Below, piece after piece: positions 1 to 62,247 of a stretch of 64,000 nucleotides of DNA (the stretch's first letter is position 1; every line of letters starts with the position of its first letter). Location of the stretch: the NCBI GenBank assembly GCA_028280285.1, contig JANQMA010000014.1, positions 907-64,906 on the forward strand, given 5' to 3'. This stretch comes from Candidatus Omnitrophota bacterium. Its GTDB lineage: Bacteria > Omnitrophota > Gorgyraeia > Zapsychrales > Zapsychraceae. The notes beneath the pieces are model-generated. The model worked only from the letters and a program-made list of their open reading frames with translations. It was not told where the DNA came from and did no database searches. The translations under genes and the position numbers were made by a program.

Positions 1-28
1 TCTAAAATACCTTCATGTAATAGATGTA

Positions 29-2647
29 ATGGATAAATTTTGGACAAATGGTCAAAATCCTTTGGATGCATGGAAGATGTTCAAACAAGATGTTGGTGGT
101 GATACTATAAATGTTATTTTTAGTGCTGATTTTACAAATGATATGGCAGAGTCTTTTAAGGCCTTTGAAGTATTGATAGAAAGCTGGAATGAAAATCCAG
201 ATAAATTTGTTGTAATGAATGATGTTTTAAAGAATTTTTCAGAAGATTTTTATAACCAGGTGGTATCTAGTGGCACAGGATACGAGGCATTTTTTGACAA
301 TTTTGGCGAGTATATAAAAGAAGACGATCTTCTGCAATCGAGTTTTATCTTATCCCAAATGCTTATGGATGCCGAACAGGTTTTTGAAAAATTCAATATA
401 GTAGATAGTGGTTTTGATAGTTTATCAACTTATTTAGGGGTTGCTAAGTATGTTGGGATATATGGAAAAGATGTCGTATTAAATGCTAATGATGCTTTTG
501 AAATACTTGATCGTGGTGAAGGGAGAGTTTCTGATCGTTATTTTGTTGCTAATGATAAGGGTGATATAGCAAGAATAACTAACGAAAAATATTTTGATGC
601 GGCTCAAAGGCATGGCGATAAGTTTGGTGTTCATGTTCAAAATGTATTGCGATTTTTTGAATCCGAAGAAGGAGCATATAGTAATGACAAGTTTGAGGAT
701 ACGGTTATAAATATAAGATTGCGTCAAACTATGCCAGAGCTTGTAGATTTATATGTAAAATTTGGTGCTAATGCTTTTCAGAGCGCTCTTAATGATAGTG
801 TACGTAGTAAGTTATTTCAAGGCCAAGGAAGTGAAGATTTTTTAAATCAATTTAAAAGTGAACTAGGAGATGAGGCTTCGCTTGGGCGTGAAAATGAAGT
901 CGACTCGGCAGCGATGGCGGAGCAGGATGATAATACCGCTCTAACAGATGAACAAATAAAACAGAGGTCTGATCCACGTTATACGAAAATTATTTTTGAA
1001 ATGCACAAAATTATTAAACATGCTGTTGGGGTTATGGGTGGAACTGAGAATGACGTTCAGCGTATTGCGGAAAAAGTACAGTTGGACATTATTAATCAAA
1101 GACGTTCTGGATATAACAAAGAAAGTGCGACAATATATTGGAATCCTAATAATGGATATGAAGGCCTTGGTTCTGAGGTTGGACATGCGATCCATTATAT
1201 TCTTGGGAGTGAAGATATACATAGGGGAATCGCTGAGGTTTACGATGCTTATGTCCATTATTTAGTTGCTAATAAGACAGCAATACAACAAAGGAGTGGT
1301 GTTTTTAGTGAGGAAAGAATTATTATTGGCAGGGCGTTGTTAAAGTTTATTGAGTCAGAGGAAAATCCATGGAAATGGAAAGATATAAATACATTGAATA
1401 ATGAAGAAGGTGTTCAGTTTTATCGAAAGTTTTATTTATTTTTGGTAGATGAATATGTTAATGTTCATCAGAGTGAAGATATTCTATATGATGCAAAAAG
1501 ATTGAAGGATTTCTTGGATAAAACTAAGAGGGATGTATATGATAAGTTTACTCATTTTATTGGTGTAGCTCTTTTAGAGAGGTTATTATCTTTTAATGAT
1601 AATGATATTTTAGCTGTCGGAAGGCAGTTATTTAAAGCATTAAATGATGAAAATATTGATTTCGAAACACCGAGCTCGTTTATAAGGGATGTTGTGTATG
1701 ACAGAACGGAAGACTTGGATATTATGGGTGATAAAAAACCTATAGATTTTCTGACAATAGGACAATTAGGCGATTTCGATTCATTGGCATTAGAAGAAGG
1801 TTTGTTAAAAGATGCAATGGATATTTCCTTTAGAGGCGAATCAGAAATTCATATGATGCCTCGGTATAATTTAGGGGGGCTGATTGAAGAAACTATTAAA
1901 ACACGTAGGAAAACAAAAATACAGGCAGTAGAATCAAGGGCTGAACTTAAACCCGAAAAAATATGGAGAGCGGTAGATCCGGTAAAGCTAGATCTGGTTG
2001 TATTAGCTGAAATGCCAACTCCGGTAAAGCTAGATGTGGTTGGATTAGATAGAATGCCAACTTATGATTTTGTTAATTTAAGGCCTCCTGAAGAAATAAG
2101 GAGATCAAATACAAAGTCTATTTATCGTTTTTTAATTTCAAATGATAAAATTATGCCCAGTGATCGATTCCGTCTGAGATTAAATTATTATAAATGGGTA
2201 GTTTCTGAAAAATTTCAAACTTGGCGGGATACTATATATTCTTTAGCCATTAAGCTTTCCCATCCAGAATATGAAGCATTGGAAGATCTGCCGGTGGAGG
2301 AATCAGATGATGAGAAAGACTCTGCTATGATAGTGAAGCAAGATCCGGCAAATCTCGGTGGGATTGATTTGAATCCAGCCAACTGGGAGCTTAAGACCAA
2401 GGGCATGCAAGGCTCGGATTGTTCGGAAGACGGGTTTGATGATTGTTTGAAGTTTGATATTCCTCAGGAGCAAATTGAGCAGTTACGTTTAAGCATTGAC
2501 GGGCTGGTGCCGGTGATTATTAACGTCCAGCCGGTGACCAATCTCCCACTATTTTTAGGTCTTGCTGATGAATTGCCGGATGAAAAGCAGCCGCAAAGGG
2601 AATCGGAGGAGGAGCTGGTCCTCGACGCTTTTATCAAAGAGTCTTAG
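29..2647 (+). CDS. Large hypothetical protein (872 aa) with no N-terminal signal peptide; carries the conserved C-terminal module shared with the two giant proteins
   Basis: Long ORF with an in-frame TAA at 26-28 just upstream, so the start lies inside the window. Its last ~90 aa (GGIDLNPANWELKTKG ... IDGLVPVIINVQPVTNLPLFLGLADELPDE plus an acidic tail) align with the C-termini of the ORFs ending at 31006 and 62247 and with the fragment at 3861-4069. No recognisable catalytic motif. Confidence 0.6.
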   Translation: MDKFWTNGQNPLDAWKMFKQDVGGDTINVIFSADFTNDMAESFKAFEVLIESWNENPDKFVVMNDVLKNFSEDFYNQVVSSGTGYEAFFDNFGEYIKEDDLLQSSFILSQMLMDAEQVFEKFNIVDSGFDSLSTYLGVAKYVGIYGKDVVLNANDAFEILDRGEGRVSDRYFVANDKGDIARITNEKYFDAAQRHGDKFGVHVQNVLRFFESEEGAYSNDKFEDTVINIRLRQTMPELVDLYVKFGANAFQSALNDSVRSKLFQGQGSEDFLNQFKSELGDEASLGRENEVDSAAMAEQDDNTALTDEQIKQRSDPRYTKIIFEMHKIIKHAVGVMGGTENDVQRIAEKVQLDIINQRRSGYNKESATIYWNPNNGYEGLGSEVGHAIHYILGSEDIHRGIAEVYDAYVHYLVANKTAIQQRSGVFSEERIIIGRALLKFIESEENPWKWKDINTLNNEEGVQFYRKFYLFLVDEYVNVHQSEDILYDAKRLKDFLDKTKRDVYDKFTHFIGVALLERLLSFNDNDILAVGRQLFKALNDENIDFETPSSFIRDVVYDRTEDLDIMGDKKPIDFLTIGQLGDFDSLALEEGLLKDAMDISFRGESEIHMMPRYNLGGLIEETIKTRRKTKIQAVESRAELKPEKIWRAVDPVKLDLVVLAEMPTPVKLDVVGLDRMPTYDFVNLRPPEEIRRSNTKSIYRFLISNDKIMPSDRFRLRLNYYKWVVSEKFQTWRDTIYSLAIKLSHPEYEALEDLPVEESDDEKDSAMIVKQDPANLGGIDLNPANWELKTKGMQGSDCSEDGFDDCLKFDIPQEQIEQLRLSIDGLVPVIINVQPVTNLPLFLGLADELPDEKQPQRESEEELVLDAFIKES
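1979..2062 (+). repeat. In-frame 42-bp tandem duplication (x2) inside the 872-aa ORF (PVKLDLVVLAEMPT / PVKLDVVGLDRMPT)
   Basis: ccggtaaagctagatctggttgtattagctgaaatgccaact is followed directly by ccggtaaagctagatgtggttggattagatagaatgccaact. Confidence 0.8.
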
Positions 2648-17819: not shown

Positions 17820-17846
17820 TCCTGCCAGAATAAACTATTACGTACA

Positions 17847-17878
17847 AGGGGCCATACCAATGGCCCCTAAATTTTTAT
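17847..17878 (+). terminator. Intrinsic terminator-like GC hairpin after ctaC
   Basis: aggggccat / acca / atggcccct (9-bp stem) followed by aaattttta. Confidence 0.5.
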
Positions 17879-17879
17879 C

Positions 17880-18866
17880 ATGACAACACATCCTAATCCT
17901 GGGTTAAGAGTTTTTTCTAAATTGCTTTGCGCAGCCACGCTGTTTTTGATTTTTGCCGGCGCTATGGTCAACAGCACAGGATCCGGACTGGCCGTGCCCG
18001 ACTGGCCAACATCCTACGGTAACTGGTTTTTTGTACCAATGGTGGGCGGGGTATTTTATGAGCATGGTCACCGTCTCATTGCCGAGGCTGTAGGGCTTAT
18101 GACTGTTGTGCTTGCTATATGGATCAAACTGAAAGATACACGCAAGTGGCTGCATGTGCTTGGATTTGTTGCGGTGGCGGCGGTTATTATCCAAGGTGTT
18201 CTTGGCGGACTCACCGTGCTTTATTATTTGCCAACACCGATTTCTGTTATGCATGGTGTGTTGGCGCAAAGCTTTTTGATTTTAACCGTTGTGATTGCTT
18301 ACGACCTGTCTAAAGAACGTAATGACCGGCTGGATGCGAACGGTCTTGATAGCACATGCTCTAAACTAATTAAGCCAGCTGTTATCTTCGGACTACTGAT
18401 TTATCTACAGCTTATTTTAGGGGCAATCATGCGTCATTCAGGCGCAGGGCTCGCGATTTACGATTTCCCGACGATGGCAGGCACATGGTGGCCCACGCTT
18501 AATGAAGGGATGCTATTTACTATTAATGATTGGCGCTTTGAAAATAACCTTGATCCTGTTAATATGACGCAAGTTACCCTGCATTTGATTCACCGTATCG
18601 GTGCAGCGGTGATTCTTGTTTATTTAATTTTTCTTAATATCAATGCCTTTAAAAATGGAAAATTGACACCGCGCTTAAAAAACACTGTTTTATTAATTGA
18701 CCTTTTGGTTGCCATACAGATTATCCTTGGTATTATGACTGTGTTAACGGGAAAGCATCCACATGTAACAAGCACGCATGTGGCATGTGGGGCACTCACT
18801 TTAAGTTTATCGGCCATACTTGTTTTACGCGCCATGCCGGCACGTTTGAGTGATATGAAAAAGTAA
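17880..18866 (+). CDS. ctaA: Heme A synthase
   Basis: Eight-TM protein with paired conserved His residues (HGHRLIAE, HLIHRIGA) typical of CtaA/COX15. Confidence 0.8.
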   Translation: MTTHPNPGLRVFSKLLCAATLFLIFAGAMVNSTGSGLAVPDWPTSYGNWFFVPMVGGVFYEHGHRLIAEAVGLMTVVLAIWIKLKDTRKWLHVLGFVAVAAVIIQGVLGGLTVLYYLPTPISVMHGVLAQSFLILTVVIAYDLSKERNDRLDANGLDSTCSKLIKPAVIFGLLIYLQLILGAIMRHSGAGLAIYDFPTMAGTWWPTLNEGMLFTINDWRFENNLDPVNMTQVTLHLIHRIGAAVILVYLIFLNINAFKNGKLTPRLKNTVLLIDLLVAIQIILGIMTVLTGKHPHVTSTHVACGALTLSLSAILVLRAMPARLSDMKK

Positions 18867-18868
18867 AA

Positions 18869-18947
18869 TTGTAATTAGTAATTGGTAATTAGTAATTTGT
18901 GGAGCAACTCACCGTACAAATTACCAACTACTAATTACTAAATACCA
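18869..18947. repeat. Heptamer-built inverted repeat (GTAATTR x4 / mirror) between ctaA and ctaB
   Basis: tgtaatt agtaatt ggtaatt agtaatt tgt - ggagcaactcaccgt - acaaatt accaact actaatt actaaat acc. Confidence 0.6.
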
Positions 18948-18963
18948 TTAACATTTTTAAATA

Positions 18964-19824
18964 ATGAACAAAAAAATATCTGCTTACATAGAAATGACAA
19001 AACCGCGGATCATGACCCTGGTCCTGGTGACAACGGCTTTGGGGTATTATTTAGGAGGCCAAGGTATTAATTCCTGGCTTCAGTTTGTGTATCTTCTGAT
19101 CGCCTCCGGACTTGTGTGTGGCGGCAGCAGTGTTCTCAATCATTATCTTGAGCGCGACTATGACGCCAAGATGAATAGAACAAAAAATCGTCCAATTCCG
19201 TCCGGCATAATTAGTCCCAATAATGCCTTACAATTCGGGATCATTCTAACACTCATCGGTGTTTTTATTCTCTACACGAAAATTAATATTTTGACTTCCT
19301 TTTTAGGCCTTCTGACAACATTTCTCTATGTTTTAGTCTATACCCCCATGAAACGTGTTAGTTGGTTTAATACAACCGTCGGTGCTGTTCCAGGCGCTAT
19401 TCCGCCCCTCGGTGGATGGGCGGCTGCTACCGGCACGCTTGATTTCAACGCGGGGATGCTATTTCTCATTATGTTTATTTGGCAGCATCCGCATTTCTAT
19501 GCGATCGCTTGGATGCTTAAGGAAGATTACAAGCGAGGGGGCTTTCAAATGCTTCCTTTAGTTGAAAATGGCAAACAAAAAACATTCACACAAATTCTTT
19601 GGTATTCTATTATTTTAATTCCCGTTTCAGTTGTTCCGACGCTGACTGGCTTATCTGGCTATATTTATTGTGTTGGATCAATTGTTTTAGGGCTTTTGCT
19701 GTTTTATACAAGTTGGAGTTTTATCAAATCCGGTTCAATAGAAGATGCCCGTAATTTACTTAAGGCAACGGTGTATTATCTTCCGGTATTATTGTTTTTT
19801 ATTATCATCGACGTACAATTCTAA
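18964..19824 (+). CDS. ctaB: Protoheme IX farnesyltransferase (heme O synthase)
   Basis: UbiA-family polytopic protein; NRTKNRPIPSG and WQHPHF motifs. Confidence 0.9.
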   Translation: MNKKISAYIEMTKPRIMTLVLVTTALGYYLGGQGINSWLQFVYLLIASGLVCGGSSVLNHYLERDYDAKMNRTKNRPIPSGIISPNNALQFGIILTLIGVFILYTKINILTSFLGLLTTFLYVLVYTPMKRVSWFNTTVGAVPGAIPPLGGWAAATGTLDFNAGMLFLIMFIWQHPHFYAIAWMLKEDYKRGGFQMLPLVENGKQKTFTQILWYSIILIPVSVVPTLTGLSGYIYCVGSIVLGLLLFYTSWSFIKSGSIEDARNLLKATVYYLPVLLFFIIIDVQF

Positions 19825-22254: not shown

Positions 22255-23763
22255 TTACAAAGAAACCGGTTCGTGCGCTTGGATTTCTTGCACAACGTTT
22301 TTCTCTACGTCATCTTTTTTCGTTTTAAACAAATTAATAAATTTTTTAAAGAAGTAATCAATGAACGCTTTAAAGCCGTATAATTTACGCAGCAAATCAC
22401 CGACCGTACGGATAGAAATCAACATCTGCCACATTTGCTTTGGGCGCAAATAGAACTCTTTTAACCCCTTGTCTATATATTCATCGATATCACGGCTTGA
22501 AAACTGTGGATAACTCAAAAGTGTCCGTTGTTCTTTCTGCGCATTGAGCCATTCGCGCCAATCATTGGCTCTTAAATAACCATTCTTTTTGGCCCATTTA
22601 TAAATAGATGTCCCGGGATAAGAAGCAACACCGGTTACTTGAATGGTATCAAGGGGAAGAGACTTGGCAAAATCGATTGTTTCCTGGGCTGTTTTTTTAG
22701 TCTCACCAGGAGCTCCAATCATAAAGCAGCCGTGGATGGTAAATCCAAGGTCATGCGCCCGATGGGCATAATCCCGGGCACCCTTAACGCTTACGCCACC
22801 TTTATTAACCGCTTTAAGCCCGTCATCATAACCAAACTCAAATCCTGTCATAAGCATACGGCAGCCGGCCTCACGCATAAGCGGAAGGACCTCTAAATCC
22901 GTATTGGTGCGCATATTGCACGACCAGGTAATTTTTTTATGAATACCGCGTTTCATAATTTCACGGCAAACATTTTCAACATGTTCATTGTCCGCGGCGA
23001 ATGTATCGGTCTCAAACATGATCTCACGAATCTGCGGATGAAGCTTTAGGTCATATTCCATTTCTTCGGCGACCTGAACGGCTGTGCGATTACGTAACTT
23101 ATAGCCATACATAAGCTGCGGATCACGGCAAAAGGTACAACCATTATTGCAGCCACGTCCGGTCATAAGCGTTAAAAATGGAAATTTCTTGCCACCGTCG
23201 GGATACCATTCGGGTTCAATCAATTGCCAGGCAGGGAAAGGGAGTTCAGTCACATCAAGCACCGGACGATCAGGATTGGTGATAACGTTTTGACCATCCC
23301 ACCACGTCATACCCAAAACTTTTGACGGTTCAGTGCCATTCGCTAAATCCCGCAATGTATAATCATATTCACCACGCAGGATATAATCAACAACGCCACC
23401 GCTGATTTCAAAAGTGTTTTCAGGGACTGCCGAGGCATGCTGCCCGACAAAAGCAACCTTACAATTCGTTTTATCTTTGATTACACGCGCTTGTTCAATG
23501 TCATTGTAAACAGACGGCGTTGTCGCGTGGATCATCAAGAGATCCGGATTAAAATCAAAAATGATTTTATAAGATTCTTCCGGCGTCAGATTACGGGCTG
23601 CCGCCTCAATAAACTTAACATCATGGCCGGCATCAATAGAGACCTGGATGGCGGTAAGCATATACTCAGGATGCCGCTGCACACGACCGCGGGACTTGGC
23701 CGCCCAGCGGGCCACACGGACAAAATCTTCACCAAAAGAGGGATTTAAGACTGCAATTTTCAT
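22255..23763 (-). CDS. B12-binding-domain radical SAM enzyme (class B)
   Basis: N-terminal B12-binding-like domain and the radical SAM motif GRGCNNGCTFC. Substrate unknown; the same architecture occurs in hopanoid/lipid methylases and BchE-like enzymes. Confidence 0.75.
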   Translation of the reverse strand: MKIAVLNPSFGEDFVRVARWAAKSRGRVQRHPEYMLTAIQVSIDAGHDVKFIEAAARNLTPEESYKIIFDFNPDLLMIHATTPSVYNDIEQARVIKDKTNCKVAFVGQHASAVPENTFEISGGVVDYILRGEYDYTLRDLANGTEPSKVLGMTWWDGQNVITNPDRPVLDVTELPFPAWQLIEPEWYPDGGKKFPFLTLMTGRGCNNGCTFCRDPQLMYGYKLRNRTAVQVAEEMEYDLKLHPQIREIMFETDTFAADNEHVENVCREIMKRGIHKKITWSCNMRTNTDLEVLPLMREAGCRMLMTGFEFGYDDGLKAVNKGGVSVKGARDYAHRAHDLGFTIHGCFMIGAPGETKKTAQETIDFAKSLPLDTIQVTGVASYPGTSIYKWAKKNGYLRANDWREWLNAQKEQRTLLSYPQFSSRDIDEYIDKGLKEFYLRPKQMWQMLISIRTVGDLLRKLYGFKAFIDYFFKKFINLFKTKKDDVEKNVVQEIQAHEPVSL

Positions 23764-23995: not shown

Positions 23996-26900
23996 ATGCG
24001 TACCCACTGGACATATAGGTTCATTGCATTGGTTGTAAGCTGTTTATTTACAGTTACTTCGATCAATCCCGTCTATGCTCAAGTCCAGCCTGTTTCGGAT
24101 ATTGTTCCTAAACTACTTCCTATCAATGGTTTAAATCAGCCCTTTGAACCTATGCTTATCAAAGGCCTTAAAGTTAATCAAACCAACCCCTTCGAGATGG
24201 AATTTATTGTCAGTAATAAGAAGAGTGGTCAGTTTAAGAAGGAGTCTGCTCGGCTTATAAAATACTTCCTTGCGGCCTTAACCATTCCTGGAAAAGACAT
24301 GTGGGTGAATTTGTCCCCTTACGAAAAAAACCGGATTATTCCCGAATCCTTTGGTCAGACTGAGATGGGAAGGGAGCTGTTAGTTCAGGATTATCTCTTA
24401 AAACAGGTCACAGCATCATTATTGCATCCGGATGGTGAATATGGACAAAAATTTTGGGCCAAGATAGCGACCCAAGCATCCCAGGATATACCGTTAGAAT
24501 TATTCAGCAAAGTCTGGATCATACCGGATAAAGCAGTGGTGTATGAAAATGGAGGGACAGCCTATGTGGTGGAGGCGAGTTTAAAGGTGATGTTGGAGCG
24601 TGACTATTTAGCGGTTCAAACAGATGCTAGATCCTCGATGCTTGATGCTAGTCAACAAGAACTAGTATCTAGTATCCAGCATCCAGCATCTAATAACCTA
24701 ATCCGTGAAATTATAATCCCCGCCATCACCCAGGAGGTAAATGAATCCAAAAACTTCGCCAAACTCCGTCAAATCTATCACAGTCTCATCCTTGCGACCT
24801 GGTACAAAAAAAAGATGCAAAACGGGATTCTGAACCAAATCTATGTCGATCAAAACAAAACCGATGGGTTCATCCATAATGACCCTGAAGCAGCCAACAA
24901 AATTTGGCGAGAATATACCGAAACATTTAAAGAAGGAGCGTACAATTCCATCAAAGAAGAATACGATCCGCAGACCCAGCAAATCATCCCAAAGAAATAT
25001 TTTTCTGGCGGAGCTGATATGGCTAGCCTTGAAACAGAATCAATAGATAATTTTGTCTTAAAAGATGATGAAAGAGATATGGCTGTTCTTAAGATTAAAT
25101 TAAACTTAGAAAAATCTGACTTCGCGAGCTTAGCTAAAAGATTTTGGGAAAGACTAAGTATAGGTGGATTTGATATAGAAACTATCAAAAAATTATCGAC
25201 AGCTGTGCTAGACCAAAAAATTGAAAACCCAAAACAGTACGTTAATTCACTTATTGATTTTAAAAACTCTGTTAAACAAGCAACTTTATTAGAAAATCTT
25301 ATTAAAAGCATCATCAGTGCCAAAGATCCCAAAGGTCTCATTGATAACTATAAAATTATCATCGATAAAGTACACTATGGCTTGGGGCGTGATTCACAAG
25401 AGGACCTGGATAAACACCTAAAAAAGATTAGCGAGCAAGAGTCCCCTGAAACAGTGGCCCAAGAGGTAGTAGATATCCACTCAAAACTAAAGGAATTAGG
25501 CCGTAAAGACTACTACTACGTTGCTAATGATATATTTAAATATATTTTAGTTTCGGATGATTACGCCAGAAACACTGCTCTTCTTAATAAATCCACACTA
25601 CTCACTCAAATCTTTAAACTCATCAATGAACTCAATACCGAATCAAAAGATTACTATGACCTTGATTCTGATATCAAAGATAGAATTGTCTTAAAGATAC
25701 TTAGTGATACTGACATTGAAGCGATAGCTGATAGCTTTATTGAGTTTTATGTTAACTTAAAATACTTCGATTTACTGGGAAGCCAAAAAAGTAACCTTCT
25801 AACAACCATCATAGAACATACAAAATATAAGCAATTAGTGGTTTGGATGAACGCTAATTCGGATACTATTAAAAAGAATGCAAAAGCTATTCCTAAACAT
25901 GAAAAAAGAATGCAATATCTACAACAGGTTATTGAATCCTATGATGGCAGCAATACCGTCATTGATACAGGTGAGTACGGACAACTTAAAGCCCTACTCA
26001 ACAGTACATCTATAGAAAAAGAGGATATTGAAGAATTACTAGAGACAGCATCTAACACAGATACTATATCTCTACTGTTAAGTTTTACAAAATATCTGAT
26101 TGATAAAAGTAAGTTTGAAGATGCTTTAGATAAAGGATTTAAAGATGATTTATATAGAAAGTTACTGAAAAGCATCATCAACGCCAAAGATCCCAAAGGT
26201 CTCATTGATAACTATAAAATTATCATCGATGAAGTACACTATGACTTAAAGCGTAAATCACAAGAGGACCTGGATAAACACCTAAAAAAGATTAGCGAGC
26301 AAGAGTCCCCTGAAACAGTGGCCCAAGAGGTAGTGGATATCCACTCAAAACTGAAGGAATTAGGCAATAAAGACTACTACTACGTTGCTAATGATATATT
26401 TAAATATATTTTAGAATCTGATAATTATTCTAAATCTATTCACAGCTTAACCAACAAAATAATATTACAATCATTGTTTGATCTTATAACTAATCATCAT
26501 GATAAAAAAATTAGTAATTTAGTTAAACTTCATCTGCCCAATACTACCGAAAATCTAGATTACACAAAAATACTAGTTCTAGAGCACTTAAAATGGAATA
26601 TCATTCATAAAGAATTACTCGAAATTTTAAATAATAGTGAAATACTTTCAGTCTTTATAAAGACTACAAATGAAATTATCAAAACATCAAAAATCAATCC
26701 AAAAAAGGAGATCAATATATTCTTGTCTGGACTGGATGAGTACTTAAAAGTGCAAGATATTTATAAACCCCTTTTAGAGTGGAATGAAGAGGATTGGAAT
26801 TATTTAGTTAACCGTCAAGAACTAGAAAATACATTAAAAAGTAAAAATTCATCATTTGATGAAAAAATGGATTTATTAAATTTCTACCATAGATTTCGTC

Positions 26901-29900
26901 CGGTAACCTCATACAGTTTTAAAACCATACGGTCATTATTTGAACAAGAAGCTCAAACAGATGAGCAAAAAATCGAAGTTGTTGAGTATGTGGTTGATTT
27001 AATTAGAGACAAAAACGATATGGAAAATAGTTTCCCTTATTTAAGAGGGTTGGTCCAAAAAATAGCCCGCAAGCGTCCCAAACAAGGGGAATCGACTATT
27101 GAATTAACTCCTGTTGAACGGTCAATCTTAGAAGCTTTTGACACTATCGAACAGCGTGATCATTTGATTGACGTGATGCTTAATCCACACATGTCTTTGG
27201 ATACTAAAGAGTCGCTTTTGTCGATAACAGCCGGAACTGTTCTTGATCCAGGTTTAACGACAATTTATCAACAATTGAAAACTAAAAGAGAAAAAAAGAC
27301 ATTTTTTGAATTATTCTTGCGTATTAAAATAGAATTTAATATCAAACCACCGGCACTTATACTCCAATACCTTTTAAATGGTCAATTGACTTTTGAAAAT
27401 TTAAAACAAGCAGTACCAAAAGTTCAAGGAAAGTCTCTTAAAAATCTGATAGAAAGCCCAGAGTTTTTAGAAAAAGACAATAATTTTTTTCTGCTCAGTT
27501 ACTTTATATTTAATCCCTCAAAATGGGAATACGCACATCAACAACGGTTTGATCAATTTAAAAGTATTATGGATATTGTCAAATCGCATATTCAAAATTC
27601 AAACTTTACCAAAGCTGCAGAAAAAGAATTATATGCATCGATCAGAAAACATTCATCGGAGGCAGAGGAAATAATTGCTGCGCTCAAAACCGGTGAAAGT
27701 ATTATTCCCAAAATTTCCGGGATGAAAGATGCGGATGGTCAATTTATTCCCCAGCCGGTGAATATAAGCTATGCAGAATCCGAGGCTTTAAAACAGCAAA
27801 GAACGGATTTTATGATGGAGTTTAATCTCCGCTTAATGAATATCTTAAAGGCCATGCATTATATAAAAAACATAACAGCTATTACTAACAGATACCAGGA
27901 TGAGTCTGTTGAATTGCGGTCTCAATTTAATGACCTTATTAAGTCAATCCAAGGGTTAGGGGGTTTTGATAATCAGCTTTTAATACAACTGCATGACATG
28001 TATTTAAACGCCTTAAAAATCCTTCCCAAATTTAAATTTGCAAATGCAACCGACCTTGAGCAAGAAATACAAAATCAAACACAAAAATTTCTCTTAGCAT
28101 TTAAGAAAAAAGCTTTAATGCCAGTATACGGTTTTAGACCATTACTTGAGCAATATAAAATTAAAAATAATGATAAGCTCATCCATTCCTTAAGTGAATA
28201 TGATATTGATCTGTTTTATAGGGCCTTTCAGAATAAATCACGATGGGGCAAGGCATATCAGGAGACGGATCATTTTGAAGGATTCATTAAACAAACATTT
28301 TCGCTTATTCCCGAACTTTTTTCTAAGAAGCATTTTGGCGACCTTTACACGGAACCGTTTCAAAAAGCCTGGGGAGAGATGGTTGGACATTTTTCGACTA
28401 CTGCAAAACAATATGAAAAAATAATACAAGATCAAGATGATGTTAATGGAAAGTCAAAATTAGTTTATGCATCTTTGTTATCTAAAAGTGACATTCTTCC
28501 GTATATTAGGTTTGGTGATGCCCCAGAGTGTTGTTTGAGTTCACATAAGGAGAGTGATCAGTTATCACAAGGTTATATAGAATATATGGCATCAGCTCTA
28601 CTTGATCAGGGGACGCATGTTATTCTCTTTCATACAGAAAATAAACCGGTTGGCTTTATTTTATGGCACTTCGCTAAAGACAAAAAAGACAAACTTGTGG
28701 CCGCCAGTGCGCGACTTTATTTACAGACCCAATACCGTTCCACAATATCTACACAGAATATAATGAAAAAAGCTGAAGAGATTATGGCTCACCTGGGAAT
28801 ACAAGAAATTCATGTATCCGATACTTCCTATCCAGGGGCCCAAGGTATTCCTGAGGGATATGAAGGAGCCCATAGTATTGAACTCAAACGCATTCAAACA
28901 ACCACAAGTGTTGAGACAACCACAACGGATTTGGACCGTTATTTATCTAATCATTTTCGTTCAATGAGCATGCATAGCAAACGTTTAGATAATGTGCTGA
29001 TAAACAAGAACGATGCTCTCCTTGAAACAGCGCCAGAACCACACGAAGATCCTCTGGAGTTGGAACTGGTAGAAAATAATCCGCTTAATGTCCAGGAAAT
29101 AATCGCTCAAGGTGATATTATTGAATCGAAAAGCGCTCAAGAATACCAAAATACGTTAAATTTGAAATTTACACAATTAGGTATTATAGAAGCATCGAAA
29201 TTTCGTGTATTTATTAGAGACGCTGATATTCAATTACACGTGCTGAGACCAAGGAGTTTCGATAAACCAACCTTTGGATTAAATGTGCCATTTACCTCTA
29301 AGAACAAAGATCTTTATGCCATAAGCCAGGAGGAAGATGGCAAAATCAATATTTATATCAGCGAATTTGCTTACCTATATGGCAGTCAGGCTCTTACACA
29401 AGAACTAATTGCCCAAGAGTTGTATAAAATTTTTGCTAAAAGTCAGTCTCTGGAAGCAACAAATGACATTGACTTAGAAAGAATGATTAATGCCGAGTAT
29501 GAGAATTATTTTAAAAGTTGGTTAGAGTCTTTGAGCGCAGTAGAGCTCTCAGATTTAGGATTAAAGGGACAAATAAAGCGTATGACGATGCGTTCTTTTG
29601 TTTTCGGCCGTTTAATGGGAGAGTTACATGTAGATCAACAAAGCAAACTTACACATTTTATGCGAGAACGCAGGGAGGTTTCTATAAAACTTAATCAGAG
29701 AAATACAGAGTCACAGGAAATAACAATGCCTATCCCTGAAGATGCCTGGGAACTGATGGCCGATATTATGATCAATAAAAAAAATCCAGGAGAATTTATT
29801 AATACTAAAATGCAAAAGGACCATTTATTGTATTGGCTGTTCGCTTCTTATGCACCAGTTGTTTTTAATTCTATAGCCAAACAAATAAAAAATTTAATCG

Positions 29901-31006
29901 ACAACAATCATTTAAATATATTAATGGTCTCGATTGGGAGAGAGAATCAAAGCACCATTGATCAATATCTACAAACTGGAGACGAAGAGAGATTACGAGA
30001 AATAATAAATTCCCGTATTTTTTCAGCAGATTCCAATGATTCCATTAAGGCAACTGATGGATGGCTTAATATCTTTAAATGGGTATATGATTATAATTTG
30101 ATGACTCGTGTTCCTATAGAGATCAAAGCTATTGCCGATAGCTATGATGGGCCCGAAGCTATATCTGAAGATCTAAAGCTTTCATCCGCACTAGCGGATA
30201 GCGACACTAATGTTGTACTGTTAGGATATTATGGGCTTCGCGAGTACTTAAATGATGAACAACAAGAAAATATATTGATTCATATTGATCCGGTAACCGG
30301 TTTTTTTAACAATACCTCAAACTCTTTAAGTTATGCGTTTAATTTTTTGCTTGCAAGCAGAGAAGATCTTATCTTAGAGATTAAAGACAGTAACTTTGAG
30401 AATGAATCAATCGTATTTTTGGAGAATTCAGAATGGCAACAGTTGACGTTTAAAGCTGGTGAGATAGAAGGAATAGCATATTCTGACGAAGAAAAACAAA
30501 GTATCGTATCCTATTATCAACGCATTGCACCACTTATTGATAAATTTAATAAGTACCATTCTGTTTACGTAAGCATCCCTGGAGAAGATGGAGGGGATGA
30601 AGAACAATCACCAAAACTAACCCCGGAAACGCCCGAATATTCCCCTGTAGGTACTCCTACTGGTGCTGTTACCGATGCAGGGGTGCGTAAAGGAGGGATT
30701 GATTTTAATCCGGCAGGAATGGAGCTGGAAATCAAGACACAAGATACAGGGCACACGACACAGGTAAACTGTGTTGATGAGCCTGATCATGCTAACTGCA
30801 TTCAATTGCATTTTACTCCTGAACAAATCAAAGACATGCGTCAAAATATTACCGGCATTACTCCTGTCATCATCGATATCAGGCCGATGATTAATCTCCC
30901 TTTATTTCTAGGCTTTAATGATTCTGAAAGGCCTGCTGATGATACGGAAACGGTGGAGAAAGAAAACCGAGACTTGTTTGCAAGACTGGAAGAAATAGCT
31001 ATCTAA
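23996..31006 (+). CDS. Giant secreted protein (about 2336 aa): signal peptide, conserved N-terminal domain, variable repeat-containing middle, conserved C-terminal module
   Basis: Probable start is the ATG at 23996 (MRTHW...); the track's 23951 start is a TTG codon. Signal peptide ...SINPVYA|QV. The N-terminal domain is homologous to that of the 58012 ORF (WVNLSPYEKNRIIP...GQTEMGRELLVQDYLLKQ). The C-terminus carries GGIDFNP ... ITPVIIDIRPMINLPLFLGF plus an acidic tail. Confidence 0.7.
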   Translation: MRTHWTYRFIALVVSCLFTVTSINPVYAQVQPVSDIVPKLLPINGLNQPFEPMLIKGLKVNQTNPFEMEFIVSNKKSGQFKKESARLIKYFLAALTIPGKDMWVNLSPYEKNRIIPESFGQTEMGRELLVQDYLLKQVTASLLHPDGEYGQKFWAKIATQASQDIPLELFSKVWIIPDKAVVYENGGTAYVVEASLKVMLERDYLAVQTDARSSMLDASQQELVSSIQHPASNNLIREIIIPAITQEVNESKNFAKLRQIYHSLILATWYKKKMQNGILNQIYVDQNKTDGFIHNDPEAANKIWREYTETFKEGAYNSIKEEYDPQTQQIIPKKYFSGGADMASLETESIDNFVLKDDERDMAVLKIKLNLEKSDFASLAKRFWERLSIGGFDIETIKKLSTAVLDQKIENPKQYVNSLIDFKNSVKQATLLENLIKSIISAKDPKGLIDNYKIIIDKVHYGLGRDSQEDLDKHLKKISEQESPETVAQEVVDIHSKLKELGRKDYYYVANDIFKYILVSDDYARNTALLNKSTLLTQIFKLINELNTESKDYYDLDSDIKDRIVLKILSDTDIEAIADSFIEFYVNLKYFDLLGSQKSNLLTTIIEHTKYKQLVVWMNANSDTIKKNAKAIPKHEKRMQYLQQVIESYDGSNTVIDTGEYGQLKALLNSTSIEKEDIEELLETASNTDTISLLLSFTKYLIDKSKFEDALDKGFKDDLYRKLLKSIINAKDPKGLIDNYKIIIDEVHYDLKRKSQEDLDKHLKKISEQESPETVAQEVVDIHSKLKELGNKDYYYVANDIFKYILESDNYSKSIHSLTNKIILQSLFDLITNHHDKKISNLVKLHLPNTTENLDYTKILVLEHLKWNIIHKELLEILNNSEILSVFIKTTNEIIKTSKINPKKEINIFLSGLDEYLKVQDIYKPLLEWNEEDWNYLVNRQELENTLKSKNSSFDEKMDLLNFYHRFRPVTSYSFKTIRSLFEQEAQTDEQKIEVVEYVVDLIRDKNDMENSFPYLRGLVQKIARKRPKQGESTIELTPVERSILEAFDTIEQRDHLIDVMLNPHMSLDTKESLLSITAGTVLDPGLTTIYQQLKTKREKKTFFELFLRIKIEFNIKPPALILQYLLNGQLTFENLKQAVPKVQGKSLKNLIESPEFLEKDNNFFLLSYFIFNPSKWEYAHQQRFDQFKSIMDIVKSHIQNSNFTKAAEKELYASIRKHSSEAEEIIAALKTGESIIPKISGMKDADGQFIPQPVNISYAESEALKQQRTDFMMEFNLRLMNILKAMHYIKNITAITNRYQDESVELRSQFNDLIKSIQGLGGFDNQLLIQLHDMYLNALKILPKFKFANATDLEQEIQNQTQKFLLAFKKKALMPVYGFRPLLEQYKIKNNDKLIHSLSEYDIDLFYRAFQNKSRWGKAYQETDHFEGFIKQTFSLIPELFSKKHFGDLYTEPFQKAWGEMVGHFSTTAKQYEKIIQDQDDVNGKSKLVYASLLSKSDILPYIRFGDAPECCLSSHKESDQLSQGYIEYMASALLDQGTHVILFHTENKPVGFILWHFAKDKKDKLVAASARLYLQTQYRSTISTQNIMKKAEEIMAHLGIQEIHVSDTSYPGAQGIPEGYEGAHSIELKRIQTTTSVETTTTDLDRYLSNHFRSMSMHSKRLDNVLINKNDALLETAPEPHEDPLELELVENNPLNVQEIIAQGDIIESKSAQEYQNTLNLKFTQLGIIEASKFRVFIRDADIQLHVLRPRSFDKPTFGLNVPFTSKNKDLYAISQEEDGKINIYISEFAYLYGSQALTQELIAQELYKIFAKSQSLEATNDIDLERMINAEYENYFKSWLESLSAVELSDLGLKGQIKRMTMRSFVFGRLMGELHVDQQSKLTHFMRERREVSIKLNQRNTESQEITMPIPEDAWELMADIMINKKNPGEFINTKMQKDHLLYWLFASYAPVVFNSIAKQIKNLIDNNHLNILMVSIGRENQSTIDQYLQTGDEERLREIINSRIFSADSNDSIKATDGWLNIFKWVYDYNLMTRVPIEIKAIADSYDGPEAISEDLKLSSALADSDTNVVLLGYYGLREYLNDEQQENILIHIDPVTGFFNNTSNSLSYAFNFLLASREDLILEIKDSNFENESIVFLENSEWQQLTFKAGEIEGIAYSDEEKQSIVSYYQRIAPLIDKFNKYHSVYVSIPGEDGGDEEQSPKLTPETPEYSPVGTPTGAVTDAGVRKGGIDFNPAGMELEIKTQDTGHTTQVNCVDEPDHANCIQLHFTPEQIKDMRQNITGITPVIIDIRPMINLPLFLGFNDSERPADDTETVEKENRDLFARLEEIAI
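25301..25553 (+). repeat. Internal repeat copy 1 (about 250 bp) of the giant gene; about 95% identical to copy 2
   Basis: LIKSIISAKDPKGLIDNYKIIIDKVHYGLGRDSQEDLDKHLKKISEQESPETVAQEVVDIHSKLKELGRKDYYYVANDIFKYIL. Confidence 0.85.
26165..26411 (+). repeat. Internal repeat copy 2, about 860 bp downstream of copy 1
   Basis: LLKSIINAKDPKGLIDNYKIIIDEVHYDLKRKSQEDLDKHLKKISEQESPETVAQEVVDIHSKLKELGNKDYYYVANDIFKYIL. The identical antisense pseudo-ORFs (MRPLGSLALMM) in the ORF track reflect the same duplication. Confidence 0.85.
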
Positions 31007-58011: not shown

Positions 58012-61000
58012 ATGGTTTGGACATTTAAACGCACTACGCAACGATTAACACATCGTATTTTTTCAATTGTTATTGCCGTTGCATTTTTTTCAAGCTCTGT
58101 TTTACCTCAGGGCGCTCAAGCACAAGTGATTCCAACGCCAGCGCCAATGCCGGCGATTGGTAGCATGGTGCCTGTCAGTCCAGGGTACACACCGGCCATT
58201 ATTCGCGGATTAACCCTTTTTCCAGAGAATCCCCTACAATTTTCATTTTACATCGATTTAGGTGACAGTGGCTTAACGGCTGAAGAGCCAGCCCTTAAAG
58301 AAACATCTCAGCGTTTAATCAACTATTTCATGGCCGGATTAACAATCCCAAAAGAAGAATTCTGGGTGAACTTATCGCCGTATGAACAAAATCGTATTAT
58401 CCCTGATTCGCTGGGTCAAACAGCGATGGGACGCGATATGCTGGCCCAAGATTACCTACTCAAACAATTAACATCCTCACTCATGTACCCGGAAGATGAG
58501 CTGGGAAGCAAATTCTGGACACGCGTCAAAGAACGGGCCATGGAGCTGTATGGCACAGATGACATCCCGACCAATGTATTGAACAAAGTGTGGATTGCGC
58601 CAGAAAGTGCGGAAATTTACATTCACAACCAAGAAGTGTTTTTAACTAATAGTCGCTTAAAGGTAATGTTAGAAAAAGATTTATTTGCACAACGTCAAGC
58701 AGTGGGGGCGGATGTCACCCATATGGAGACATCTGGCACATTGGTGAGCTCTGATGAAGTGGCAGATGTTGTCCGTGAGGTAATATTACCAGAGATCGAA
58801 TATGAAGTAAATCATGGTCAAAATTTTGCGGTATTACGTCAGATTTTTAATTCGGTCATTTTGGCCTCATGGTACAAAGACAATTTAAAAGAGACCTTAT
58901 TAGGAAAGGTGTACGCTGATCAAAATAAGGTCACAGGCATCGATGACAATGACCAGGCAACGAATCAAGCGATTTATAAACAGTATGTTGAGGCATTTAA
59001 AGCAGGAGCCTATGACTATATTAAGGAAGAGTACAATCCAGCAACACAAGCTATGACAGCAAAAAAATATTTCTCTGGTGGGGTAGGAAATTTAGAAGAT
59101 TTAGCGATACTTATTAATGGAGAAGTGCATACACCGAATACAGATACCGAGACATTTTATCGTAGAGTCAGTGGATTTTCACCTCAAGTTGTCCGCGTTG
59201 GTGGAGAGAATGTTGAGGCGACAAAAGAAACGATTGAAGACTTACAAGCATATTTAGATGAACAAAGTACAAAAATTAAATCTGTGGAAAATAAGACTGC
59301 AGCGATGGATGCGCACGATGACGATGCGGCAGTTGTTATGGATGTATTAGCGGACAAAGATGCAGCGAGTTTGACGATACAACAATTAATAGATGTATTA
59401 CCACGAAAAGTGTTTAAGAAAAAGTTTAGAGATAGCTTGCTTCAAAAAATACCGTCACAAGAAGAAGTAGATACTATGTCTAAAGAAGATCTTCAGGCTA
59501 TCGAAAAGGATATCATTAATGCTATTGAACAGAGATTACGTGAGTATTTATGGGTGTCTACAAAAAGCATTCAAGATGATATGGGAATGTCTAATCAAAA
59601 ACGGGAAAGTTTTTGGTATGGAAGGGATGATTATATTTCCGTTAAGAATGAAGAGATCCAAGGCTTATTTTTACAGGTTTCTAGCAATTTGAGCAGGTTT
59701 GTAAGGGGGAAAGAGCTCGAGCTTCGTAGTCCTTTTGATAAATATGGGGATCGCCATCATTCCTTCAAACGCTTAGATTATGAAGTTATGAATAATGCAG
59801 CCCAGGCGATTGTAGAATGGGTGACGGAACAAAAATCTAATGTTGCTAGATTTTTAGAAAAACAAGAGGAAGAGGTGCGACAACAAGAGACCGCATTACG
59901 TGCAAGGTTGGGGGGGCAACACAGCCAAAAAGGTAAGACTATTCAAGATTTAATAAATACATTACCACGAAAAGTGCTTAATAAAAGTTTTAGAGATGGC
60001 TTACTTCAAAGAATACCATCAGCAGGAAAAGTAGATACTATGTCCGCAAAAGATCTTCTGGAAATTGAAAAAGGTATTATTGATGATATTGGGCAGAAGT
60101 TAAACGGTTATTTGTGGTCGTCTGCAGATAGCATGCAAAATGACATGGGAAGGTCAAATCAAAAACCGGAAAGTTTTTGGTATGGAAGAAGTGCAAGGGA
60201 TATTAGCGTTAAGTATAAAGATGGTGAATATATTTATTTGAGACTCTATGAGTATTTTCAAAAAGGCAAATTTCAGTTTCATGATGGGCACTATACTTAT
60301 TATTCCTTTAGTGGTTTAAGTTATGAAGTTATGAATAATGCGGCTCAGGCGATTGTAGAATGGGTAGTCCGACAAAATGACAATATTGCTAGGTCTTTAG
60401 AAAAACAAGAAGAAGTTGCGGGTCAACAAGAAGCGGCATTACGTGTAAGATTAGGTACGGAAAGCGATACAGCGGCGATTGAGGAGGTAAAGGAACTACA
60501 AAATAAGGAAGAAGCGAAAGATTCTGCCGTACTAGAAGATAAGGATATGGCGGCGCTTCTGTCGAACGAAAAATCACCGGATAATGATAGTGCAGCTTTT
60601 GGCAACCCTTTAATTCCTATGATACCCGAAATCGAAGATGTTGGAAGGCTTCCTGCTTATATCTTTTCGCGAAAACAAATTGAACTAATGACAGAACATT
60701 TACTAAGTACCATGGATGCAAATTCTGAAGCGACAGTAAAAATCAAAAAAACTATTGCCAGAATAATTGTAGCAGAAGCTCAAAAATACAGTGAGCGCCC
60801 TTTCTCTGGGTATTATGCGTCTTGGTACGCGTTTCGGATGGAAAAGGATAATGGAATTACACCAGCCGTTTATTTTGCAAAAGAGGTTATGGAGAATTTA
60901 ATTGCAAAAGGCTTTGAACATGATGATCTTATCAATTTTCATACAAGCTATTTACAAAAAAATATTTTTAAAACACACCGGAAAAAGATTATCGAAATTC

Positions 61001-62247
61001 AGAAAATAGAAAATTTTGAAGAAAAAAATATTTTACTGGAACAAGAATATAGGCGTTTTCAAAATATATTGATAGATATTTTTCTAAAAAATTTTAGTAG
61101 AAGGGTACAGGTACACTACGTTGACAGCCCAGAGTTTAGCAAAAAATTTAAGATTAATTTGTTCCCCAAAAAAAATGAAATACGTATTTTATATCCATAC
61201 AAACATACTGACCAAAAAGAGTACCTAATTTCAACAAATCCACCCGTTATCCATTTTCATGCTCATCTTGACTCATATAGAGTTTCATCTGAGATTGATA
61301 GATTACGGGCTAATATTTATTTTGCTCTTTTACCCGCTCTAATGGCTTTAGAAAAAAGTCAGGATAAGTCTAGAGCAAAATATACAAAAGAATACTATCA
61401 CACAAGTTTTTTTGAAAAAACTGTACTAGAAGATATACCAGAAAGCGCTGGGCTCAAAACAAACGATAAAGAAATACTCACATCTAAAATTGAACAAATA
61501 GAAGACTTGCTTGATGATTTTTTTCCGCTTCCAGATAGATTAAAAGAAATCCTAAGAATAATTAAACTTGAAGGCAACTTACAAAGCATGAAATCCAAGA
61601 TGGAAAAATTAAATTTAAAAGTGATCGATGCTTTAGTCGAACAATTGAACCAAAAAGGACTGATGGATACACTTGACATCCATTTGCCAAATAATCCTAG
61701 TTACTATTTACGCATTTCTCCATTAAAAAAAGGAGATAAAAATGTAATTACATTAAAAGGTTATGCTCCAGATTTTGGTGAATTTGCCGTAAACCAAATT
61801 ACAGTACAACAAATGTTGGAAATAATACCTATTATTAAAAAAGAACTGACAAGTTATAAAGATTTCAATGATAAACAACAAAAATTATTTAAATATTTTA
61901 CTTCTTGGAACGTTTTTCAGACTTTATTAGATAATGCCGCTCTTGAAAAAGATACAGAAGCCAAGAACGATTCAGCCGTTGGTGGTATCGATCTTAACCC
62001 TGATTTATTGGATCTGCAGATCAAGCGCGATGATAATGGCATTCCGTTGCCACTTAATCAGCAGCCGCTTGAACATATGAATATTGATGGGTTTGTCCCG
62101 GTCATCATTAATATTGTCCCAGTCCCGAATTTGCCATTGTTTTTAGGATTAATGGATAGCAATGATAATCCTATCCAAGACACGGAACCTTATCAATCGG
62201 CAGAAGTGTTCGGGCGTGAGGAATTCAGTTATTTACGTGAGCATTAA
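58012..62247 (+). CDS. Giant secreted protein (1411 aa), paralog of the 23996 ORF: signal peptide, conserved N-terminal domain, internal ~180-aa tandem repeat, conserved C-terminal module
   Basis: Signal peptide ...PQGAQA|QV; N-terminal domain homologous to that of the 23996 ORF (WVNLSPYEQNRIIP...GQTAMGRDMLAQDYLLKQ); C-terminus GGIDLNP ... IDGFVPVIINIVPVPNLPLFLGL plus a D/E-rich tail. Confidence 0.7.
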   Translation: MVWTFKRTTQRLTHRIFSIVIAVAFFSSSVLPQGAQAQVIPTPAPMPAIGSMVPVSPGYTPAIIRGLTLFPENPLQFSFYIDLGDSGLTAEEPALKETSQRLINYFMAGLTIPKEEFWVNLSPYEQNRIIPDSLGQTAMGRDMLAQDYLLKQLTSSLMYPEDELGSKFWTRVKERAMELYGTDDIPTNVLNKVWIAPESAEIYIHNQEVFLTNSRLKVMLEKDLFAQRQAVGADVTHMETSGTLVSSDEVADVVREVILPEIEYEVNHGQNFAVLRQIFNSVILASWYKDNLKETLLGKVYADQNKVTGIDDNDQATNQAIYKQYVEAFKAGAYDYIKEEYNPATQAMTAKKYFSGGVGNLEDLAILINGEVHTPNTDTETFYRRVSGFSPQVVRVGGENVEATKETIEDLQAYLDEQSTKIKSVENKTAAMDAHDDDAAVVMDVLADKDAASLTIQQLIDVLPRKVFKKKFRDSLLQKIPSQEEVDTMSKEDLQAIEKDIINAIEQRLREYLWVSTKSIQDDMGMSNQKRESFWYGRDDYISVKNEEIQGLFLQVSSNLSRFVRGKELELRSPFDKYGDRHHSFKRLDYEVMNNAAQAIVEWVTEQKSNVARFLEKQEEEVRQQETALRARLGGQHSQKGKTIQDLINTLPRKVLNKSFRDGLLQRIPSAGKVDTMSAKDLLEIEKGIIDDIGQKLNGYLWSSADSMQNDMGRSNQKPESFWYGRSARDISVKYKDGEYIYLRLYEYFQKGKFQFHDGHYTYYSFSGLSYEVMNNAAQAIVEWVVRQNDNIARSLEKQEEVAGQQEAALRVRLGTESDTAAIEEVKELQNKEEAKDSAVLEDKDMAALLSNEKSPDNDSAAFGNPLIPMIPEIEDVGRLPAYIFSRKQIELMTEHLLSTMDANSEATVKIKKTIARIIVAEAQKYSERPFSGYYASWYAFRMEKDNGITPAVYFAKEVMENLIAKGFEHDDLINFHTSYLQKNIFKTHRKKIIEIQKIENFEEKNILLEQEYRRFQNILIDIFLKNFSRRVQVHYVDSPEFSKKFKINLFPKKNEIRILYPYKHTDQKEYLISTNPPVIHFHAHLDSYRVSSEIDRLRANIYFALLPALMALEKSQDKSRAKYTKEYYHTSFFEKTVLEDIPESAGLKTNDKEILTSKIEQIEDLLDDFFPLPDRLKEILRIIKLEGNLQSMKSKMEKLNLKVIDALVEQLNQKGLMDTLDIHLPNNPSYYLRISPLKKGDKNVITLKGYAPDFGEFAVNQITVQQMLEIIPIIKKELTSYKDFNDKQQKLFKYFTSWNVFQTLLDNAALEKDTEAKNDSAVGGIDLNPDLLDLQIKRDDNGIPLPLNQQPLEHMNIDGFVPVIINIVPVPNLPLFLGLMDSNDNPIQDTEPYQSAEVFGREEFSYLREH
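59380..60456 (+). repeat. Two diverged (about 50% aa identity) tandem repeat units of roughly 530 bp inside the 1411-aa gene
   Basis: Unit 1 about 59380-59912 (QQLIDVLPRKVFKKKFRDSLLQKIP ... YEVMNNAAQAIVEWVTEQKSNVARFLEKQEEEVRQQETALRARLG); unit 2 about 59938-60456 (QDLINTLPRKVLNKSFRDGLLQRIP ... YEVMNNAAQAIVEWVVRQNDNIARSLEKQEEVAGQQEAALRVRLG). Confidence 0.75.

Follow-up and report, generated by a model that had tools for sequence, protein, structure and literature searches.

A large protein family of Candidatus Omnitrophota with conserved ends, an exchangeable middle and a probable role outside the producing cytoplasm

Two genes, A and B, lie on a 64,000-nt stretch of DNA from a Candidatus Omnitrophota bacterium (NCBI GenBank assembly GCA_028280285.1, contig JANQMA010000014.1, positions 907 to 64,906 of the forward strand; hereafter the window, with positions counted from its first nucleotide), and encode long proteins that resemble each other at both ends and are unrelated in between. 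Together with a third gene that is cut by the edge of the window (2-2647), they are members of one very large family almost confined to Candidatus Omnitrophota. That is, a fixed N-terminal domain (N-domain) and a fixed C-terminal module (C-tail) enclose a middle region, or cargo, which is an exchangeable cassette and varies by replacement of the cassette. We consider it probable that the fixed ends serve as handling modules around an exchangeable payload that would act outside the cytoplasm of the producer. Omnitrophota are widespread bacteria, known best for the peculiarity of very long exported proteins that are full of normally intracellular enzymes. The motif strings of the two end modules were not found in the literature searched, and the family is, as far as could be found, undescribed.

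Conserved ends and an exchangeable cargo

A complete family member consists of a signal peptide, an N-domain of ~310 aa ending in KYFSGG, a cargo of 0.3 to more than 3 kaa, and the C-terminal module. The N-domain directly follows the signal peptide and has the signature WVNLSPYE...MGRDLLAQDYLLKQ ... KYFSGG, whereas the C-terminal module, of 65-105 aa, reads GGIDLNP ... G-F-x-PVIINIxPVxNLPLFLGL and is followed by a short polar or acidic end; the third gene has this module as well. Both A and B match the hidden Markov model (HMM) of the family N-domain over its full length. When the two proteins were compared directly, the N-terminal region showed 39% identity over 419 columns (BLASTP, E=4e-82; 43% over 351 aa by tblastn) and the C-tail 39% identity over 116 columns (BLASTP, E=3e-12), and no segment outside both ends scored better than E=0.8 (BLASTP). 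The middles of A and B are therefore unrelated. An earlier reading of the window, made from the sequence alone (hereafter the sequence-only reading), had described just this combination of a shared signal peptide, N-domain and C-terminal module with unrelated central regions, and the alignments agree with it. The similarity that it placed at about 45% for the N-domain is real, the figure being slightly high, and the motif that it gave, WVNLSPYExNRIIPxSxGQTxMGRxxLxQDYLLKQ, is present in A (aa 103) as well as in B (aa 118). At ~40% identity the N-domains of A and B are no nearer to each other than to those of members in other genomes, where the best matches reach 56% for A and 80% for B, and the two paralogues thus represent old lineages.

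With the N-domain of A as query, more than 1000 proteins were matched at 44-56% identity, all of them annotated as hypothetical; those with a named source, among the matches listed, all came from Candidatus Omnitrophica/Omnitrophota or from an unclassified hydrothermal-vent metagenome. A scan of genomic sequences for the N-domain, using one genome per species, gave more than 580 confirmed matches, which is a lower bound; nearly all were in Omnitrophota metagenome-assembled genomes (MAGs), and a few in MAGs labelled otherwise. The locus analyses below cover the best 80 loci of the at least 580 genomic matches, plus the window. Several genomes contribute five of these 80 loci each, and genes arranged as tandem pairs or triplets are frequent. 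A search with a C-tail profile against 1.84 billion cluster representatives retrieved 6398 representatives at E<=1e-3, of which 3951 at E<=1e-10, with the match always at the extreme C-terminus; the longest carrier among the matches listed has 5808 aa. The pair of paralogues noted in the sequence-only reading is thus real, though not merely a local pair: the family is phylum-wide and has thousands of members, with several per genome.

Among the matches listed, the N-domain was also present in 50 of the 62 C-tail carriers of at least 700 aa, the other 12 starting without a signal peptide and looking like fragments. Conversely, in the locus set both modules were found on 61 open reading frames (ORFs; 59 from the 80 loci, the other two being A and B), separated by 337-3076 aa, and ORFs with a single module were mostly located at contig or locus ends or beside a stop codon or frameshift. 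In five loci, L014 (16130-19084), L039 (2412-7232), L044, L076 and L079, the body and tail of a family gene are separated by a frameshift or by one in-frame stop codon, which is TAG in L014 and TAA in L039. Such split genes may be pseudogenes, assembly errors or cases of gene fission.

Comparison of close relatives showed that the middle region behaves as a cassette. The nearest relative of B, protein P0164 (2888 aa), is 76% identical to it over aa 1-370 and 60% identical over the tail, and has no similarity to it in the cargo, which in P0164 comprises three phosphoglucomutase/phosphomannomutase (PGM/PMM) domains. P0198, whose N-domain is 66% identical to that of B, has a WD40-like propeller as cargo, and P0147 has an FBPase-like cargo segment. 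The similarity between B and its relatives ends just past KKYFSGG and returns at a D-x-A-[AM] motif, here D-x-A-A-L, directly upstream of GGIDLNP. Since the closely related ends of B and P0164 hold unrelated cargos, the difference between them indicates cassette replacement and not point-mutational divergence.

The cassettes stand out in base composition as well. In the three window genes the GC content at third codon positions (GC3) is 0.37-0.53 in the end modules and 0.24-0.30 in the cargos (25031-30655, 59107-61929 and 2-2341), with values of 0.35-0.43 for housekeeping genes of the window. Likewise, GC3 was higher in the N-domain than in the cargo in 54 of the 59 genes from other genomes (mean difference 0.083, p=5.5e-10), and across the family the GC content of the cargo is below that of the flanking DNA whereas that of the N-domain equals it.

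The borders of the cassette are marked by a short motif, D-x-A-M, which occurs 102 times in 59 cargos where shuffling predicts 7.7 (~13-fold enrichment). The copies cluster in the first 40 aa past the N-domain and at 10-30 aa ahead of GGIDL, and long cargos have extra copies inside. No enrichment was seen in 690 non-family ORFs from the same loci (20 observed versus 23 expected). In the lineage of the window the motif takes the form D-x-A-[AVM], and it is also found ahead of the tail in the third gene. The cargo of B is divided by clusters of the motif (aa 437-455, 819-862 and 1307-1322) into a short lead segment, two tandem repeats and a distal module of 440 aa. D-x-A-M could serve in processing (cleavage) or in recognition, or could cap a structural unit.

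For A and B, the cargos are lineage-specific orphan sequences enlarged by internal duplication. That of A matched only itself among 5.8 billion proteins and has one weak relative, L040, in the fetched loci, and no relative of the B cargo was found in metagenome contigs. Exact look-ups and searches with the cargos for homologues found no second contig or second strain for either gene. The two copies of the A repeat are dispersed, with a spacing of 864 nt and unrepeated DNA between them, and are 91% identical over 279 nt and 76% identical as protein. This pair does exist as the sequence-only reading had it, but the 95% identity given there for 25301-25553 and 26165-26411 was measured as 93%. In B, two tandem units of ~545-565 nt, 78-79% identical, extend over 59373-60455, in agreement with the tandem units placed earlier at 59380-60456.

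These repeats had been taken as a sign that the proteins are surface adhesins or host-interaction proteins, the repetitive middle of which would evolve fast under diversifying selection, with a repeat number varying between strains. Signal peptides together with internal duplications are compatible with such a role, as are the absence of homologues for the A and B cargos and the acidic, Cys-poor composition of the proteins. The ratio of non-synonymous to synonymous substitution rates (dN/dS) between repeat copies is 0.3-0.57, though, which gives no indication of positive selection, and each gene has only two copies, diverged by 7-22% at the DNA level, rather than a slippage-prone array. In addition, no adhesin-type domain was detected in A or B (Pfam), most family cargos are enzymes of cytoplasmic type or HEAT/TPR scaffolds and not adhesin domains, and close relatives such as B and P0164 differ by a swap of the whole cargo. 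The dN/dS values, the two diverged copies per gene and the lack of adhesin domains make the adhesin explanation a weak one, and we regard it as quite unlikely; the idea of a rapidly changing middle under diversifying selection is likewise not supported.

Relation of the ends and cargos to known families

Searches with the full-length proteins and with cargo segments gave no Pfam, NCBIfam or PDB sequence match above threshold for A or B, and the C-tail profile had no match in the PDB. Pfam, NCBIfam, PDB sequence and PDB fold searches were likewise negative for any characterised enzyme family to which the ends might belong; membership of a well-characterised enzyme family was what the sequence-only reading had named as evidence against it. 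Three weak resemblances were set aside. The small helical hairpin DUF896 was matched by 17 of the 63 N-domains below threshold (best E=0.006), which was judged a local helical resemblance and not homology; Huntingtin, the sole match of the N-domain profile in the PDB (E=0.06), was judged a chance hit. The ClyA-family alpha-pore-forming toxins NheA, SmhA and MakB, a family recognised by an elongated helical bundle with a beta-tongue, were weak Foldseek matches (E 0.1-1.7, probability <=0.10, TM 0.10-0.14). The alignment of 63 N-domain sequences contains 44 invariant columns, as defined on A. AlphaFold2 models of the N-domain built from family alignments were of moderate confidence (pLDDT ~75, with 74.8 for A; pTM 0.66-0.69) and predict a beta-hairpin after the signal peptide, then helices, a long conserved beta-hairpin and more helices. 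The most conserved stretch, WVNLSPYE..RIIP, is placed in a lower-confidence loop of the model.

Among the cargos of 52 relatives surveyed with Pfam, recognisable domains include S-adenosylmethionine (SAM) methyltransferases (5), radical SAM domains (3), PPDK_N/PEP-utilisers (2), GNAT (2), HATPase_c (2) and starch-synthase-type glycosyltransferases (2), as well as Glu/Leu/Phe/Val and alanine dehydrogenases, histidine phosphatase, PP2C, and HEAT and TPR repeats. All three radical SAM cargos have retained an intact CxxxCxxC cluster motif. In A, two overlapping sub-threshold matches at aa 1530-1607 (HlyC, E=0.019; Acetyltransf_1, E=0.052) hint, without amounting to a finding, that the protein may contain a degenerate GNAT-like domain, and the distal cargo module of B has only a sub-threshold match to EAD1 (E=0.02).

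Possible export and site of action of the payload

Among 145 family N-termini, a hydrophobic core is present in 144, a basic n-region in 142 and a small-x-small pattern, mostly xxA|Q, in 140. This is the pattern of a cleavable Sec signal peptide, and predicts that the proteins enter the Sec pathway. Most cargos (51 of 61, including those of A and B) lack any segment hydrophobic enough to form a transmembrane helix. At the other end, the tails of A and of the third gene contain an insertion with a pair of cysteines (CVDEPDHANC, Cys-x8-Cys, and CSEDGFDDC, Cys-x7-Cys, respectively) that is missing from B and most relatives. These pairs may form a disulphide loop, and as such fit an oxidising, extracytoplasmic site of the tail.

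We propose the following working. The protein would be exported through Sec by means of its N-terminal signal peptide; the N-domain and C-tail would be handling modules, perhaps recognised by an outer-membrane export or anchoring step, or used for delivery; and the middle would be the payload, whose most likely site of action is the surface or interior of another cell, a host or prey. Delivery to another cell is favoured because many of the payloads depend on SAM, Fe-S clusters, NAD(P) or ATP, and because Omnitrophota have been described as ultra-small and host-dependent.

The main alternative is a resident function: the family would consist of multi-enzyme proteins of the envelope or periplasm that serve the producer, with the N-domain acting as a tether and the C-tail inserting in or binding to a membrane, nothing being delivered. 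The combination of a signal peptide with a hydrophobic C-terminal block would suit this, and the genes lie among housekeeping genes, with no secretion locus. Moreover, membrane association or export has been predicted for giant Omnitrophota proteins with the same set of cargo Pfam domains (Nielsen & Lui 2026, bioRxiv 10.64898/2026.06.07.730766). The C-terminal hydrophobic block, however, contains 3-4 prolines and has no flanking basic cluster, and would therefore make a poor transmembrane helix. Furthermore, radical SAM enzymes, SAM methyltransferases, NAD-dependent dehydrogenases and PGM/PMM need cofactors that are not known to be available outside a cytoplasm. For these reasons we hold a resident envelope function to be unlikely, though it is the rival to be taken most seriously.

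A third explanation would be that of polymorphic toxins used in inter-bacterial competition, in which constant trafficking domains carry variable toxin modules, each with its immunity protein. The constant ends, the swapping of a module by recombination and the presence of several, often tandem, paralogues per genome are all reminiscent of such systems. But here it is the middle that varies and not the C-terminal tip; the 25 cargo families matched by most members include no nuclease, deaminase, ADP-ribosyltransferase, lipase or peptidase; and in the 80 loci no small gene recurred downstream that might confer immunity. Because of the type of cargo, the position of the variable part and the lack of immunity genes this explanation fails, and its probability is very small.

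Several observations weigh against export of a payload handled by its ends, which we nonetheless prefer. To begin with, export, signal-peptide cleavage and delivery are all deduced from the sequences. The cargos of A and B have no recognisable function (no significant Pfam match). Ten of the 61 members do have a hydrophobic segment in the cargo, which in L005, L017, L046 and L069 lies within ~100 aa after the N-domain, and the cargo of P0025 is a membrane sugar transferase; the membrane topology may therefore differ between members. In a joint model of the N-domain and tail, built on the natural minimal member P0029, the C-tail is of low confidence. No conserved partner gene was found: the 690 neighbour ORFs in the 80 loci cluster into housekeeping families only. 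Lastly, cytoplasm-type enzymes behind signal peptides could also point to an unusual energised periplasm instead of delivery.

A bolder version of the proposal, which is speculative and which we consider doubtful, is that the ends mark an undescribed, phylum-specific export and delivery route by which cytoplasm-type enzymes are moved onto or into a host or prey, with D-x-A-M as the sites of payload release. If true, this route would handle payloads ranging from single domains to multi-kiloresidue enzyme arrays, perhaps including the giant proteins, the family would constitute the effectors of these ultra-small symbionts, and its constant ends could be used to find the machinery. The family in any case allows a candidate secretome or effector set to be defined by sequence and looked for in any genome. 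Its two conserved domains can be used as bait for the machinery, and x-x-A|Q and D-x-A-M are specific candidate cleavage sites.

Family copies and gene context in the window

The features of the three family genes are listed in Table 1. The reading frame of gene A is open from a TTG at 23951, upstream of the ATG used here, and the database version of the protein (P0272, 2337 aa) begins one codon earlier, at a GTG at 23993. The third gene and an orphan copy of the tail-coding end had been overlooked in the sequence-only reading. The orphan copy shows ~90% DNA identity over ~150 nt to positions 2440-2590, within the third gene, and directly follows a gene for a DUF4143/AAA_14 ATPase (2708-3868); a second DUF4143 ATPase gene is located at 4105-5310. 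The duplicated ~150 nt of tail (2440-2590 and 3850-4000) thus flank the first ATPase gene, an arrangement that resembles insertion into, or recombination between, family genes. The orphan copy shows that duplication or recombination involves the tail-coding end.

Table 1. Coordinates of family genes, their parts and repeats in the window
Feature	Position (nt)	Strand	Details
Third family member	2..2647	+	C-terminal 881 aa only; frame open from position 2, front beyond window edge
C-tail of third family member	2357-2644	+	tblastn with C-tails, HMM
Orphan C-tail coding end	~3850-4069	+	tblastn with C-tails
Gene A	23996..31006	+	2336 aa; ORF, translation, N-domain and C-tail HMM matches
A signal peptide, Sec-type, predicted	23996..24079	+	aa 1-28; MRTHWTYR / hydrophobic core / VYA|Q; read off sequence
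A N-domain, conserved	24080..25012	+	aa 29-339; ends KKYFSGG; BLASTP versus B
A cargo region, lineage-specific	25013..30691	+	aa 340-2232; GC 0.34, GC3 0.30
A repeat copy 1	25285..25563	+	protein repeat aa 431-543 = nt 25286-25624
A repeat copy 2	26149..26427	+	aa 719-831 = nt 26150-26488
A possible degenerate GNAT/HlyC-like acyltransferase stretch	28583..28816	+	aa 1530-1607; sub-threshold Pfam only
A C-tail	30692..31003	+	aa 2233-2336; GGIDFNP ... Cys-Cys loop ... TPVIIDIRPMINLPLFLGF, then acidic end
Gene B	58012..62247	+	1411 aa; identical to database protein P0127
B signal peptide, predicted	58012..58122	+	aa 1-37; ...GAQA|Q; read off sequence and family pattern
B N-domain	58123..59082	+	aa 38-357; 76% identical to P0164, 66% to P0198
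B tandem repeat unit 1	59374..59919	+	aa 455-636
B tandem repeat unit 2	59938..60462	+	aa 643-817
B distal cargo module	60598..61929	+	aa 863-1306; GC 0.31, GC3 0.24; D-x-A-[AVM] clusters on both sides
B C-tail	61981..62244	+	aa 1324-1411; GGIDLNP ... FVPVIINIVPVPNLPLFLGL, then acidic end

In the window the neighbours of the family genes are housekeeping genes (aconitase, ilvD, aroC, cysS, zinc transporters and cytochrome oxidase). Gene A is divergent from a gene for a B12-binding radical SAM protein (22255-23763, minus strand), which showed no connection with the family. A multihaem cytochrome c gene (8896-11874) is followed by a haem-copper oxidase cluster (13966-19824) encoding COX1, COX2, CtaA and a UbiA-family prenyltransferase, the last of which is possibly the haem O synthase CtaB. 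According to a recent survey, the dominant Omnitrophota orders lack an aerobic terminal oxidase; given the oxidase cluster in the window, the source organism probably belongs to a different, respiring lineage. The stretches 44811-47234, 48825-49796 and 53670-57845 contain two sets of ZnuA-type metal ABC transporter genes, the second with two ABC-3 permease genes; a CobW-family GTPase gene and cysS lie between the sets, and the arrangement resembles a duplicated zinc-uptake region.

Comparison with known systems

Two known types of C-terminal signal or domain were considered and rejected. Signals for sortase or exosortase (LPXTG, PEP-CTERM) are of a type that comprises a short motif, a transmembrane helix and a C-terminal basic cluster; the family has a hydrophobic block with 3-4 prolines, followed by an acidic or polar end or by 1-5 residues, and no NCBIfam CTERM match. 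Autotransporters (type V) require a beta-barrel of at least ~250 aa, as against the 65-105 aa of the C-terminal module, and no autotransporter Pfam match was obtained. Polymorphic toxins (CDI, Rhs, MafB) also have a constant trafficking part, a module exchanged at conserved junctions and multiple paralogues per genome, but differ, as set out above, in that the variable part of the family is internal and not toxin-like, and in the immunity genes, none of which were found in the loci.

The multifunctional-autoprocessing repeats-in-toxin (MARTX) proteins of Vibrio and relatives offer a closer parallel. They too have conserved N- and C-terminal regions around central effector modules, which vary between close relatives by recombination at defined junction sites. 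The ends of MARTX toxins, however, consist of glycine-rich repeats of the repeats-in-toxin (RTX) type, and A and B have no RTX- or hemolysin-type match (Pfam, E<=1). MARTX toxins lack an N-terminal signal peptide and leave the cell by the type I route through a C-terminal signal, whereas the family has predicted Sec-type signal peptides. In MARTX a cysteine protease (Peptidase_C80) cuts between the effectors; Pfam searches of A and B detected no protease domain, and the D-x-A-M motif of the family is not the MARTX cleavage site.

Cargo proteins of the type IX secretion system (T9SS) resemble the family in having a Sec signal peptide, an arbitrary cargo and a conserved C-terminal module of ~70-100 aa that is shared by unrelated proteins of one phylum. 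The family tails differ in giving no match to T9SS C-terminal models (Pfam, NCBIfam) and in having no PDB relative. Moreover, T9SS cargo proteins have no shared N-domain of 310 aa and are extracellular enzymes or adhesins, not cytoplasm-type enzymes. No T9SS machinery genes were seen in the 64-kb window, the only part of the genome covered.

The giant proteins of Omnitrophota come from the same phylum and likewise have signal peptides. Their cargo set includes methyltransferase, HATPase_c, GNAT, HAD, starch synthase, PGM/PMM, radical SAM and HEAT/TPR domains (Nielsen & Lui 2026, bioRxiv 10.64898/2026.06.07.730766; West-Roberts et al. 2023, bioRxiv 10.1101/2023.11.21.568195), and the cargo repertoire of the family relatives matches it, while A and B themselves have no significant Pfam match. 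At 2336 and 1411 aa, respectively, A and B fall well short of the giants (Archaeovorin, Dockerin-type and multi-enzyme classes), which have at least 10,000 aa, so that the label 'giant' attached to them in the sequence-only reading was generous by the usage of the Omnitrophota literature. In the two giant-protein papers the N-termini are described as without identifiable domains, and the N-domain, C-tail and junction motif are not reported (bioRxiv 10.1101/2023.11.21.568195; 10.64898/2026.06.07.730766). By analogy, the working of the family would be closest to that of MARTX toxins and type IX cargo proteins, though it belongs to neither group.

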